This document shows positions 1 to 5,726 of a DNA stretch of 5,726 nucleotides, one piece after another. The translations under genes were made by a program, and so were the position numbers. Positions within the stretch are counted from its first letter, which is position 1. Each line of letters starts with the position of its first letter. Under the pieces are notes generated by a model that did no database searches, was not told the DNA's origin, and saw only the letters and a program-made list of their open reading frames with translations. This DNA comes from a virus (taxonomy: Duplodnaviria; Heunggongvirae; Uroviricota; Caudoviricetes), in IMG/VR virus record IMGVR_UViG_2547132417_000009. One strand, written 5' to 3'.

Positions 1-289
1 TGGCTGGGTGGAAATCGACAACAACATCGCAGAGAACGCCTTACGGGGAGTGGCCGTAGGCCGGAAAAACTGGATGTTCGCGGGTTCCGACAGCGGTGGT
101 GAACATGCGGCGGTGTTGTACTCGTTGATCGGCACATGCCGTCTGAACAATGTGGAGCCAGAAAAGTGGCTGCGTTACGTCATTGAACATATCCAGGACT
201 GGCCGGCAAACCGGGTACGCGATCTGTTGCCCTGGAAAGTTGATCTGAGCTCTCAGTAAATATCAATACGGTTCTGACGAGTCGCTTAC
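1..289 (+). mobile_element. Right end of an IS66-family insertion sequence (3' end of transposase gene plus terminal inverted repeat)
   Basis: The translated C-terminus (..EIDNNIAENALRGVAVGRKNWMFAGSDSGGEHAAVLYSLIGTCRLNNVEPEKWLRYV..LLPW) is the conserved C-terminal signature of IS66-family TnpC transposases. The element ends ..CGCTTAC at 283-289, the reverse complement of the GTAAGCG terminus typical of IS66-family inverted repeats; the same GTAAGCG appears at 5366 as a left end. The exact boundary is uncertain by a few bp. Confidence 0.75.
2..259 (+). CDS. tnpC: IS66-family transposase TnpC, C-terminal fragment (5' end lies outside the window)
   Basis: The open frame runs from the window edge to TAA at 257-259; the Met at 8 in the ORF track is internal, not the real start. 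The translation carries the conserved IS66 TnpC C-terminal motif (NWMFAGS..GGE.AA..YSLIGTC.LN..EP..WL..V...I.......LLPW). Confidence 0.75.
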   Translation, partial: GWVEIDNNIAENALRGVAVGRKNWMFAGSDSGGEHAAVLYSLIGTCRLNNVEPEKWLRYVIEHIQDWPANRVRDLLPWKVDLSSQ

Positions 290-365
290 TAGTGAGTTGT
301 ATCTATTTATTTTCCAATAAATACAATTGGTTATGTGTTTTTAGGTGGGGCGATCGTGAGGCAAA

Positions 366-394
366 GAAAACCCGGCGCTGAGGCCGGGCTTTTA
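366..394. terminator. Bidirectional intrinsic (Rho-independent) terminator downstream of the 345-aa gene
   Basis: GC-rich stem CCCGGC (371-376) / GCCGGG (383-388) with a 6-nt loop. On the minus strand it is followed by TTTTCTTT and on the plus strand by CTTTTA, with an A-run before it. It lies 17 bp beyond the TAA (411-413) of the minus-strand gene. Confidence 0.7.
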
Positions 395-410
395 GGGCGG
401 GTTGATGCTC

Positions 411-1448
411 TTAACACCCTTTAATGGGAGTTGAGATACGAGATATCATTGCTGATTCAATTATCCCACTTCTGACTTTATAGTCACCAAAAAGAGAAAT
501 TGAATCAGAAAGTTTCATGCTTTCATAAAGAAGGTCTGTTTCGTCTTTATCTATAAAATCAGTAACAACATAAGCAGGGAAGGTATAATCAGTGCCAACC
601 TTTTTGCAAGTTACTGTCAGCTTTCCATCTGATTTTTTAATGCCTTCAATTTCAACTTCTTCTGTAAGTTCTTTGTTGGAAAGTTTCTCACGTGGGTTTC
701 TTATCATTTCGGCAATATCACGCTTATCTAATTCGATCTTTGCCATACCATTAAACTCTACTCTGTCAGCATCTGAGACGCCTTTCAACACCCCAACCAC
801 AGCATTTGAAGTATGGGATTGAATTCCCTCTGAAATCTCCCTCGCAGCTGCTGTGGCAGTATGAGCAGAAAGAACTTCAACCATGCCATCTTTAAGCAGT
901 CTCATTTGCTCAGTTTGGCTGTTGGTGTCGTTGAGGCCTTCATCAATCTCAAGTTGCTTCATTTTTTCTATATGGCGATCTTTTTGTCTCGACTTTATCA
1001 GCCAAGCCCCAGTAAGGATCAGCGATATGAGAACGAGACATATAGCTTTCTCTGTTCCAGTCATACCTTGTGTTGACCTCTCAAATGCAACACCAAATGA
1101 ATCAATTACATCCTTTATAGCAACAAGTAGGTCAGTACAGCCAGGCTCAACTTTAAAAATTATCTCAAGCTCTTTTCTATCACTGTCTTTCAAATGCTTG
1201 AGATTATCCGTTCCTCGCCTTACAAGCATAAACGCTTTATAAAGTTCGGTCTGAAACTCGCACATACCTTGAGCTAAAGAGGACGGTATCGTCCCATTAT
1301 ACCGGTCTGGATCACCATAAATCTTGAAACTTACGTGGTTAACAAAATCAATTTTAATGTCATTGATAGATATTTGCTGACCTTTCTGAACTCTTTCTAA
1401 AAACTCTGAAACGTCGCTTAATGATGAGATATCAATTTGATTGTCCAT
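411..1448 (-). CDS. Hypothetical 345-aa single-pass membrane protein in the rexA/rexB position; candidate prophage exclusion or abortive-infection protein
   Basis: Long minus-strand ORF. I place the start at the ATG at 1446-1448 (MDNQIDISS..), 22 nt downstream of the cI stop; the longer 374-aa ORF would overlap cI by 65 nt. Residues ~134-152 (KAICLVLISLILTGAWLIK, nt ~993-1049) form one hydrophobic helix flanked by charged residues; the N-terminal ~130 aa and C-terminal ~190 aa are hydrophilic, with a charged, possibly coiled-coil stretch after the helix. No nuclease, kinase or NTPase motif recognised. It is AT-rich compared with the flanking lambda genes, ends at a strong terminator, and sits downstream of and on the same strand as cI, as rexAB does in lambda. 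Confidence 0.7.
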   Translation of the reverse strand: MDNQIDISSLSDVSEFLERVQKGQQISINDIKIDFVNHVSFKIYGDPDRYNGTIPSSLAQGMCEFQTELYKAFMLVRRGTDNLKHLKDSDRKELEIIFKVEPGCTDLLVAIKDVIDSFGVAFERSTQGMTGTEKAICLVLISLILTGAWLIKSRQKDRHIEKMKQLEIDEGLNDTNSQTEQMRLLKDGMVEVLSAHTATAAAREISEGIQSHTSNAVVGVLKGVSDADRVEFNGMAKIELDKRDIAEMIRNPREKLSNKELTEEVEIEGIKKSDGKLTVTCKKVGTDYTFPAYVVTDFIDKDETDLLYESMKLSDSISLFGDYKVRSGIIESAMISRISTPIKGC

Positions 1449-1470
1449 ATCTTTTCTCAATGTTATTGTG

Positions 1471-2184
1471 TTAACCAAACGTCTCTTCAGGCCACTGACT
1501 AGCGATAACTTTCCCCACAACGGAGCAACTCTCATTGCATGGGATCATTGGATATTGCGGGTTTAGTGGTTGTAGGAACACCTGACCGCTATCCCTGATC
1601 AGTTTCTTGAAGGTAAACTCGTCACCACCAAGTCTGGCTATGCAGAAATCACCAGGCTCGACAGTCTGCTCAGGGTCAACAAGAATTAACATCCCGTCAG
1701 GAAAGCTTGGCTTGTAGCCTGTTGGTGCGGTCATGGAATTACCTTCAACCTCAAGCCAGAATGCAGAGCCACTGGCTTTTTTAGTTGTGCTTACCCATTT
1801 CTCCGCATCACTTTTGGTAAAGGTTCTAAGCTCAGGCGAGAACATCCCGGCCTGAACATGAGAAAAAACAGGGTACTCATACTCACTTCTAAGTGACGGC
1901 TGCATACTAACCGCTTCATACATCTCGTAGATTTCTCTGGCGATTGAAGGGCTAAATTCTTCAACGCTAACGTTGAGAATTTTTGCAAGCAATGCGGCGT
2001 TATAAGCATTTAATGCATTGATACCATTAAATAAAGCACCAACGCCTGACTGCCCCATCCCCATCTTGTCTGCGACAGATTCCTGAGATAAGCCAAGTTC
2101 ATTTTTCTTTTTTTCATAAATAGCTTTAAGGCGACGTGCGTCCTCAAGCTGCTCTTGTGTTAACGGTTTCTTTTTTGCGCTCAT
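1471..2184 (-). CDS. cI: Lambda-type CI repressor (237 aa)
   Basis: The translation is essentially lambda CI: N-terminal HTH region (..[21 protein letters not shown]..) and C-terminal LexA/S24-like autocleavage domain (..[10 protein letters not shown].. to ..[10 protein letters not shown]). The ATG at 2182-2184 sits directly at PRM, as for the leaderless lambda cI mRNA. A few residues may differ from the reference lambda sequence as I remember it; I cannot verify that. Confidence 0.95.
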
Positions 2185-4814: not shown

Positions 4815-4839
4815 CCATCTACATCACTGAGCTAATAAC

Positions 4840-4871
4840 AGGCCTGCTGGTAATCGCAGGCCTTTTTATTT
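4840..4871 (+). terminator. tR2-type intrinsic terminator between ren and ninB
   Basis: Perfect 8-bp stem AGGCCTGC (4840-4847) / GCAGGCCT (4856-4863) with an 8-nt loop, followed by TTTTATTT. This is the position of lambda tR2. Confidence 0.8.
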
Positions 4872-4887
4872 GGGGGAGAGGGAAGTC

Positions 4888-5328
4888 ATGAAAAAACTAA
4901 CCTTTGAAATTCGATCTCCAGCACATCAGCAAAACGCTATTCACGCGGTACAGCAAATTCTTCCAGACCCAACCAAACCAATCGTAGTAACCATTCAGGA
5001 ACGCAACCGCAGCTTAGACCAGAACCGAAAGCTTTGGGCTTGCCTTGGTGACGTCTCTCGTCAGGTTGAATGGCATGGTCGCTGGCTGGATGCAGAAAGC
5101 TGGAAGTGTGTGTTTACCGCAGCATTAAAGAAGCAGGATGTTGTTCCTAACCTTGCCGGGAATGGCTTTGTGGTAATAGGCCAGTCAACCAGCAGGATGC
5201 GTGTAAACGAATTTGCGGAGCTATTAGAGCTTATACAGGCATTCGGTACAGAGCGTGGCGTTAAGTGGTCAGACGAAGCGCGACTGGCTCTCGAATGGAA
5301 AGCGCGATGGGGAGATCGGGCTGCATGA
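4888..5328 (+). CDS. ninB: NinB (Orf-family recombination mediator, 146 aa)
   Basis: Translation from the ATG at 4888 (MKKLTFEIRSPAHQQNAIHAVQQILPDPTKPIVVTIQERNRSLDQNRKLWACLGD..) matches lambda NinB. A purine-rich RBS (GGGAGAGGGAAG) lies upstream. The ORF-track start at 4870 is a TTG extension. Confidence 0.9.
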   Translation: MKKLTFEIRSPAHQQNAIHAVQQILPDPTKPIVVTIQERNRSLDQNRKLWACLGDVSRQVEWHGRWLDAESWKCVFTAALKKQDVVPNLAGNGFVVIGQSTSRMRVNEFAELLELIQAFGTERGVKWSDEARLALEWKARWGDRAA

Positions 5329-5369
5329 CTATCAAATCAAATACGCCAGCACACGACAAGGACTGGTAA
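5325..5369 (+). pseudogene. 5' remnant (14 codons) of the nin gene following ninB (ninC position), cut by the IS66-family insertion
   Basis: The ATG at 5325 overlaps the ninB stop (ATGA), the usual coupling in the lambda nin region. The frame reads MTIKSNTPAHDKDW and then hits TAA at 5367-5369, which lies inside the IS terminus GTAAGCG (5366-5372). Confidence 0.6.
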
Positions 5370-5726
5370 GCGTAAAGCCAATGCCGTCTGTAACACCTGC
5401 TCCTTGCAGACTAAATTAGAGCTCCTTCTAAATTAGACGGAGTTCTATTGATGGATAAACCTACAGACTGGCGCTCCGGAACCCGCCGGATATTTTCTAA
5501 TGAATTTAAACTTCATATGGTTGAACTGGCTTCGAAACCAAATGCCAATGTTGCACAACTGGCCCGGGAACATGGCGTTGATAACAACCTGATTTTTAAA
5601 TGGCTACGCCTCTGGCAAAGAGAAGGACGTATTTCTCGTAGAATGCCTCCAACTATTGTAGGCCCTACAGTATCACAATCTTTTCCGGCCTCTCCGACTC
5701 TGGTTCCAGTGGAACTTATCGACACC
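5366..5726 (+). mobile_element. Left end of an IS66-family insertion sequence (terminal inverted repeat plus start of tnpA), continuing beyond the window
   Basis: It begins GTAAGCGTAAAGCCAATGCCGTCTGTAACACC. This shares GTAAGCG and scattered downstream positions with the reverse complement of the right end at 261-289 (GTAAGCGACTCGTCAGAACCGTATTGATAT), the imperfect inverted-repeat pattern typical of the IS66 family. It is followed by a tnpA-like ORF. Confidence 0.7.
5451..5726 (+). CDS. tnpA: IS66-family accessory protein TnpA (orfA), N-terminal part; 3' end outside the window
   Basis: The ATG at 5451 has GGAG about 8 nt upstream. The frame stays open to the window end (92 codons: MDKPTDWRSGTRRIFSNEFKLHMVELASKPNANVAQLAREHGVDNNLIFKWLRLWQREG..), which explains its absence from the stop-bounded ORF track. 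It has an HTH-like N-terminus and sits first after the left inverted repeat, as expected for IS66 orfA. Confidence 0.65.
   Translation, partial: MDKPTDWRSGTRRIFSNEFKLHMVELASKPNANVAQLAREHGVDNNLIFKWLRLWQREGRISRRMPPTIVGPTVSQSFPASPTLVPVELIDT

Follow-up and report, generated by a model that had tools for sequence, protein, structure and literature searches.

The 5,726-nt stretch of DNA analysed here (IMG/VR record IMGVR_UViG_2547132417_000009; its whole length is called the window below) carries the immunity and replication genes of a lambda-like phage between two insertion sequence (IS) ends of the IS66 family. The window very probably comes from the interior of a full-length mEp332-like prophage with lambda immunity, in which two different IS66-family elements, ISCro1 on the left and an ISEc47-type element on the right, were inserted separately. 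Since each IS has its own perfect target site duplication (TSD), colinear phage flanks and an empty site that is single-copy in IS-free relatives, both are best regarded as independent simple insertions, and nothing that we found contradicts the two-insertion reading. An earlier note, made from the sequence alone, had offered two independent insertions and an IS-mediated rearrangement or deletion as alternatives; the former now stands, and the latter falls because no phage base is missing.

Junctions and target duplications

The whole window is 100% identical to a part of the complete 4.94-Mb E. coli chromosome CP189652.1, the source chromosome, to which the protein encoded at the rex position had led. 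Megablast comparison with 5,426 complete E. coli genomes gave boundaries that are exact to the base, as the matches of IS-free prophages break at 290 and 5365. An IS66-family 3' end stops at 289 and an IS66-family 5' end begins at 5366, both on the plus strand; the earlier note had read them in the same way, and the breakpoints, the 100% identity to IS copies and the Pfam matches given below agree with it.

In CP189652.1, the junctions of ISCro1 read ...GCGTTGTT TAGTGAGT / GTAACCGGCTC...(ISCro1::IS3)...GTCGCTTAC / TAGTGAGT TGTATC, where the slashes mark the ends of the element. The 8-mer TAGTGAGT stands on both sides of ISCro1, in CP189652.1 and in a near-identical relative (IMG 2531839531), as a perfect 8-bp TSD, of which positions 290-297 of the window are the right-hand copy and the other copy precedes the left inverted repeat (IRL). 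The junctions of the ISEc47-type element read ...CACACGAC AAGGACTG / GTAAGCG...GACGCTTAC / AAGGACTG CTGGCAAACG, and AAGGACTG on both sides of it in CP189652.1 is likewise a perfect 8-bp TSD, with its left-hand copy at 5358-5365 of the window and its second copy directly after the right inverted repeat (IRR), also in the relative. Beyond each IS in CP189652.1, the phage sequence resumes at the very next base, with no phage base lost or rearranged. The comparison with IS-free relatives that the earlier note had proposed revealed the empty sites, as each 8-mer occurs once, with identical flanks, in phage mEp332, in PCP06101 and in two further genomes. The far junction of ISCro1 (...TTGTT TAGTGAGT / GTAACCGGCTC) was predicted from the TSD hypothesis and then found exactly in the second contig of IMG 2531839531. 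The target of ISCro1 is in non-coding DNA that separates OL from the end of the cI operon, about 85 bp right of the left operator OL3, and the ISEc47-type target comprises codons 12-14 of a dam-like gene directly after ninB.

The 8-mers that the earlier note had compared, TAGTGAGT at 290-297 and AAGGACTG at 5358-5365, do differ as it said, but they flank different elements and the comparison is uninformative, because the true partner of each sits beyond its own IS, outside the window. A match between them would be expected only of a circular 5-kb molecule with a single IS. The 8-mers to be compared are therefore those on the two sides of one and the same IS, not those of two neighbours.

With these junctions, the arrangement can be accounted for by ordinary steps. 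ISCro1 transposed into TAGTGAGT in the usual DDE mode, in which the target is cut with a stagger of 8 bp, and the ISEc47-type element transposed separately into AAGGACTG in the same way. An IS3-family element later entered ISCro1. The sequence thus shows three transposition events, with the expected TSDs of 8, about 4 and 8 bp.

IMG/VR contains the left junction a single time, in UViG 2531839531_000004. The exact junction 28-mers had 0 matches in species-representative genome contigs and in metagenome contigs, and 281-bp queries spanning the junctions found no record covering either junction among the 5,426 complete E. coli genomes.

Identity of the two IS66-family elements

Positions 1-289 of the window (plus strand) are the 3' end of ISCro1, with coding sequence for the TnpC C-terminus to 259 followed by the right inverted repeat ending ...GTCGCTTAC at 289, and they are 100% identical to the 3' end of copies annotated as ISCro1. 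When translated, positions 2-259 match the Pfam families PF03050 (DDE_Tnp_IS66, 8e-11) and PF13817 (DDE_Tnp_IS66_C, 4e-17). In CP189652.1, this ISCro1 is 99.96% identical over the whole element to the ISCro1 copy of AH01, and it encodes a 215-aa HTH_Tnp_1 protein (tnpA; ISCro1-annotated copies elsewhere carry a 225-aa TnpA), a 115-aa TnpB_IS66 protein (tnpB) and a 523-aa TnpC with LZ_Tnp_IS66, zf-IS66, DDE_Tnp_IS66 and DDE_Tnp_IS66_C domains. Its imperfect terminal inverted repeats begin with GTAA (IRL, GTAACCGGCTCATTTAAACCGT; IRR as reverse complement, GTAAGCGACTCGTCAGAACCGT). The TnpC domains, the tnpA-tnpB-tnpC layout, the GTAA inverted repeats and the 8-bp TSD place the element in the IS66 family, whose classic members have tnpA, tnpB and a DDE transposase gene between GTAAGCG... 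inverted repeats (PMC12888890). The name ISCro1 was first given in Citrobacter rodentium, and the element is widespread in E. coli. It has been described as about 2,699 bp long with 8-bp TSDs (PMC12115866), and the copy here has 2,698 bp. Unlike typical ISCro1, it holds a nested 1.42-kb IS3-family element, and an insertion at its site in a lambda-type prophage is absent from the 5,426 complete genomes.

Positions 5366-5726 (plus strand) are the 5' end of the ISEc47/ISEc43-type element, where the left inverted repeat GTAAGCGTAAAGCC... is followed by the beginning of tnpA, whose ATG is at 5451. These 361 nt match the 5' end of IS66-family copies in many E. coli at 100% identity and encode the N-terminus of an HTH_Tnp_1 TnpA; elements that match this end carry a TnpA of 143-145 aa. 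The element is complete in CP189652.1 (2,541 bp), with tnpA (143 aa), tnpB (116 aa) and tnpC (537 aa) intact and with IS66 Pfam domains. Its GTAAGCG inverted repeats (IRL, GTAAGCGTAAAGCC; IRR, GTAAGCGTCAACGG), the tnpA-tnpB-tnpC layout and the 8-bp TSD are again those of the IS66 family. The complete element is 99.8% identical to copies labelled ISEc47 by the Prokaryotic Genome Annotation Pipeline (PGAP) and about 94% identical to one copy labelled ISEc43. An assignment to ISEc43, made from one interrupted copy, was dropped once the full element had been matched to the ISEc47-labelled copies. All IS open reading frames (ORFs) are intact in CP189652.1. The earlier note had suggested checking whether both IS copies are complete, and both are, each with tnpA-tnpB-tnpC, although ISCro1 is interrupted by the IS3-family element.

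The two elements resemble each other only in patches: identity is 74% in a stretch of 259 nt and 63% in one of 1.3 kb, and no exact run longer than 30 nt is common to them. ISCro1 has no useful resemblance at its 5' end to window positions 5366-5726, so that the 5' ends are unalignable, and the 3' end of the ISEc47-type element shows about 70% identity to positions 1-289. By these comparisons, the left and right ends belong to two different IS66-family elements, not to copies of one IS, and the earlier note's picture of two like-oriented copies of one IS has to be given up. The reverse outcomes that it had allowed for, namely ends outside the IS66 family or ends of a single element, were not found either: the ends are real IS66-family ends of two elements. 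Mobilisation or deletion of the approximately 5-kb segment by homologous recombination, which it had also suggested, would have a poor substrate in common runs of at most 30 nt. The identity of supposed IS copies should thus be checked before models of recombination or of composite transposons are built on them.

The nested IS3-family element is 1.42 kb long and lies between the IRL of ISCro1, from which it is 67 nt away, and tnpA, which begins shortly after it (L027 about 1347-2767, CP189652.1); together the two make a composite of 4,123 bp. It has an orfA of 168 aa and an orfB of 287 aa, is flanked by a TTTT-type duplication of about 4 bp, and is 100% identical to copies in several strains of the enterotoxigenic E. 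coli (ETEC) type. This insertion probably separates the left end and promoter region of ISCro1 from its genes.

The prophage beyond the insertions

In CP189652.1, the gene order of the left flank is exo-bet-gam-kil-cIII-ral-sieB-N, followed by nutL/pL and OL1-3. OL1-3 are intact immediately left of ISCro1, with pL, nutL and N farther left. The right flank reads dam'-ninE-ninX-rusA-ylcG-Q-porin-holin-lysozyme-Rz-KilA-N-DUF1398-Nu1. N/pL and the nin, Q and lysis genes are absent from the window because it ends inside the ISs. The earlier note was accordingly right that pL/OL/nutL/N and the nin/Q/lysis genes lie outside the window; they are not missing from the prophage, as they stand immediately beyond the ISs, and the defective remnant that it had considered is contradicted, at least at these junctions, by N, OL, Q, the lysis genes and Nu1 in the source chromosome.

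Further parts of the prophage are known from IMG 2531839531, which is 99.98% identical to CP189652.1 across an overlap of 9,963 bp. In this relative, terminase, portal, protease, decoration and capsid genes follow in lambda order. Its second contig contains 9.25 kb before ISCro1 that match, at 99.9% identity, the left arm of an intact relative (ybhC-int-xis...exo-bet-gam-kil-cIII-N-pL-OL), which puts the prophage at the lambda attachment site beside ybhC. The genes that the earlier note had asked about are thus found in two places, N, Q, the lysis genes and Nu1 in the source, and int and the head genes in the relative. CP189652.1 and IMG 2531839531, which are independent assemblies, have the junctions of ISCro1 in common, as well as the right one of the ISEc47-type element.

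The two differ at the left end of the ISEc47-type element. In IMGVR_UViG_2531839531_000004, this end abuts window position 4958, not 5365, and exactly 407 bp (window 4959-5365) are lost, so that ninB is mostly missing, together with the beginning of dam and the left copy of the TSD. The right end is retained there (IRR / AAGGACTG / CTGGCAAACG). The sequence of this loss is that of an IS-adjacent deletion. IS-mediated deletion therefore occurs in the lineage, but not in the genome of the window.

Other E. coli genomes with the same immunity and replication module carry unrelated ISs (IS3, IS1A, IS1B) inside it, so that IS insertions are common in this region of lambdoid prophages.

Alternative explanations

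Taken alone, the window lacks N/pL and nin/Q/lysis and its adjacent 8-mers differ, as would be expected if an IS-mediated deletion or rearrangement had left a defective remnant that consists of the immunity and replication module only, and the 407 bp lost next to the right IS in the close relative would fit such a history. We give this explanation hardly any credence, since both ISs have perfect 8-bp TSDs in CP189652.1 with the phage continuing at the next base on their far sides, the same chromosome carries N, nutL, pL, OL, Q, holin, lysozyme, Rz and Nu1, and int, xis, terminase, portal and capsid genes are present in the 99.98%-identical relative (attR and the tail genes of the source lie outside the view). 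It is just as hard to credit that the segment is a composite transposon or translocatable unit, or that the molecule is circular or misassembled, with ends from one IS or from copies of the same IS. The two IS ends are in direct orientation, and the gene set that they bracket is self-replicating and lambda-dv-like; however, the two ends are those of different elements, whose 5' ends are unalignable and whose 3' ends have about 63-70% identity, and both elements are complete, each having its own inverted repeats and a TSD to itself. The outer flanks also differ (TAGTGAGT left of ISCro1, AAGGACTG right of the ISEc47-type element), so that no TSD is common to the pair, and neither the same-IS pair nor the single outer TSD of a composite transposon is found. 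In addition, the context is a complete 4.94-Mb chromosome, the same ISCro1 junctions recur in an independent assembly, and neither junction occurs in another genome or plasmid among the 5,426 E. coli genomes, which gives no sign that the unit has moved.

ISs are classic sites of misassembly and the window is absent from the RefSeq complete-genome set, so that chimeric joins induced by repeats might be suspected at the IS junctions. The chance of such artefacts is practically negligible, as a chimeric join would not reproduce the exact 8-bp TSDs of both junction pairs, and two independent assemblies agree on the ISCro1 junctions and on the right junction of the ISEc47-type element. A further proposal concerns what the two elements may do together: recombination through common stretches of at most 30 nt, or one transposase acting on both GTAAGCG-type ends, might release a lambda-dv-like cI-cro-cII-O-P circle with a hybrid IS. 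We see a slim chance of this at most; if true, the released circle would be an IS-generated plasmid that confers immunity.

Several points limit how far the reading of separate insertions in a full-length prophage can be taken. The view of the source chromosome covered about 10 kb on either side of two anchor genes, and its tail genes, attL and attR lie outside this range; int, ybhC and the head genes are known from the near-identical relative, not read in CP189652.1. The IS names are PGAP labels on near-identical copies, not ISfinder references, and the 361 nt of the right element in the window match copies labelled ISEc43 as well as copies labelled ISEc47. 

From the main reading, several consequences for the phage can be expected. 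Through the 4.1-kb insert, the distance between OL3 and OR3 (in the right operator) grows from about 2.0 kb to 6,137 bp, and by general knowledge of lambda this longer spacing should weaken, not abolish, the cI-mediated looping between OL and OR. Before it reaches Q, transcription from pR has an additional 2.5 kb of IS to pass through, and N antitermination may make this possible. With the insertions, the prophage is longer by 6,680 bp and would measure about 52.9 kb if its backbone equals the 46.2 kb of mEp332. The packaging limit of the lambda head is roughly 105%, and since the estimated length would exceed it, poor packaging is possible: the prophage may be immune, inducible, excisable and replication-competent, yet poorly packageable.

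Significance of the insertions

The two insertions in the prophage have classical counterparts in lambda and in cryptic lambdoid prophages, among which polar IS1 and IS2 insertions in the pR operon were described in the 1970s. Here likewise, the elements stand among early-region genes, where polarity is possible and can be overridden by N antitermination. Unlike the classical cases, the elements here are of the IS66 and IS3 families and are found in a natural isolate. The prophage type and the IS elements are all of known kinds, and the arrangement is ordinary and already explained. Its importance beyond annotation is little, as the bracketed look of a short window comes down to a full-length prophage with three routine IS insertions. 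If the consequences considered above hold, the insertions may have domesticated the prophage without deletion (immunity kept, oversized, dam disrupted), and the 4.1-kb insert between OL and OR would be a natural test case for long-range looping by cI.

The gene hit by the ISEc47-type element encodes a phage dam-like N6-adenine methyltransferase, of which the first 41 nt lie at 5325-5365 (plus strand) of the window; the intact 175-aa gene starts equivalently in PCP06101 and mEp332. The methyltransferase is predicted to be inactivated, as its first 11 codons are cut off from the rest. A 172-aa ORF that the gene caller named "Dam" (L027 12996-13514) starts at an ATA inside the right repeat of the IS and reads in frame into dam. 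It was considered as an IS-dam fusion that might rescue the gene, and was rejected because of its ATA start and the lack of a canonical in-frame start.

Immunity and replication genes

The phage segment of the window (290-5365) is 99.5% identical over its full length, the ORF at the rex position included, to mEp332 (PV340541.1, 46,206 bp), and its identity to lambda is 98.2% across the region from cI to ninB. Neither mEp332 nor lambda has an IS at either site. Compared with lambda, the prophage differs in having a 345-aa ORF in the place of rexAB and the dam-like methyltransferase in the place of ninC.

The cI repressor gene (1471-2184, minus strand) encodes 237 aa with HTH_3 and Peptidase_S24 domains, of which 230 are identical to lambda cI; none of the seven substitutions lies in the helix-turn-helix (residues 33-52). 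To its right lie OR3-OR2-OR1 with pRM and pR (2195-2258), recognised by operator comparison with lambda, an inverted repeat and a promoter of pR type at 2232-2260. No base differs from lambda in OR2 and OR3, and OR1, OL1, OL2 and OL3 each differ by 1 nt. The change is the same central one (CTGG to CTAG) in OR1 (2242-2258), OL1 and OL2, and a different one in OL3 (OL1-3 at L027 1127-1187). The operator changes and the cI substitutions may represent a natural variant in which operator and repressor co-vary.

Rightward on the plus strand, cro (2285-2485), cII (2604-2897), the replication initiator gene O (2930-3829) and the replication gene P (3826-4527) all encode proteins identical to those of lambda, and the four iterons of ori-lambda within O (3278-3364) are identical as well. 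As judged from sequence, the prophage belongs to the lambda immunity group, with lambda-type cI, Cro and OR/OL sequences all present. The lambda immunity and the intact ori-O-P module that the earlier note had recognised are upheld by the comparison of proteins, operators and iterons. The next two genes are ren (4524-4814, plus strand) and an intact ninB (4888-5328, plus strand; 146 aa, Pfam NinB), whose products each have two substitutions relative to lambda Ren and NinB.

Other features of the window

The 345-aa ORF at the rexAB position (411-1448, minus strand) is annotated as a hypothetical protein of 345 aa in relatives and as 'T2SS GspM containing protein' in the isolated phage mEp332. 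It belongs to phrog_6191 (function unassigned, E 6e-116) and has one central hydrophobic stretch, and searches of Pfam and PADLOC gave no match. The ORF occurs in 1,338 blocks of a large protein collection, and relatives with 54-74% identity stand at the same position in other prophages, so it is widespread rather than novel. Its position suggests a candidate for a prophage-encoded exclusion or defence function.

Between this ORF and ISCro1, the non-coding spacer (298-410, minus strand) is homologous to the lambda sequence between OL3 and the end of rexB (290-388 against lambda 35730-35824, 94%). A GC hairpin with a T-tract can be read at about 367-393 in this spacer, and by homology with lambda it is probably the terminator of the cI operon, although a simple terminator scan of the window did not call it. 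Rfam, searched at the gathering threshold, gave no match in the window. A strong terminator-like hairpin is present at 4840-4863 (plus strand) between ren and ninB, with an 8-bp stem, six GC pairs and a T-run, and it sits where a tR2-type terminator is expected.

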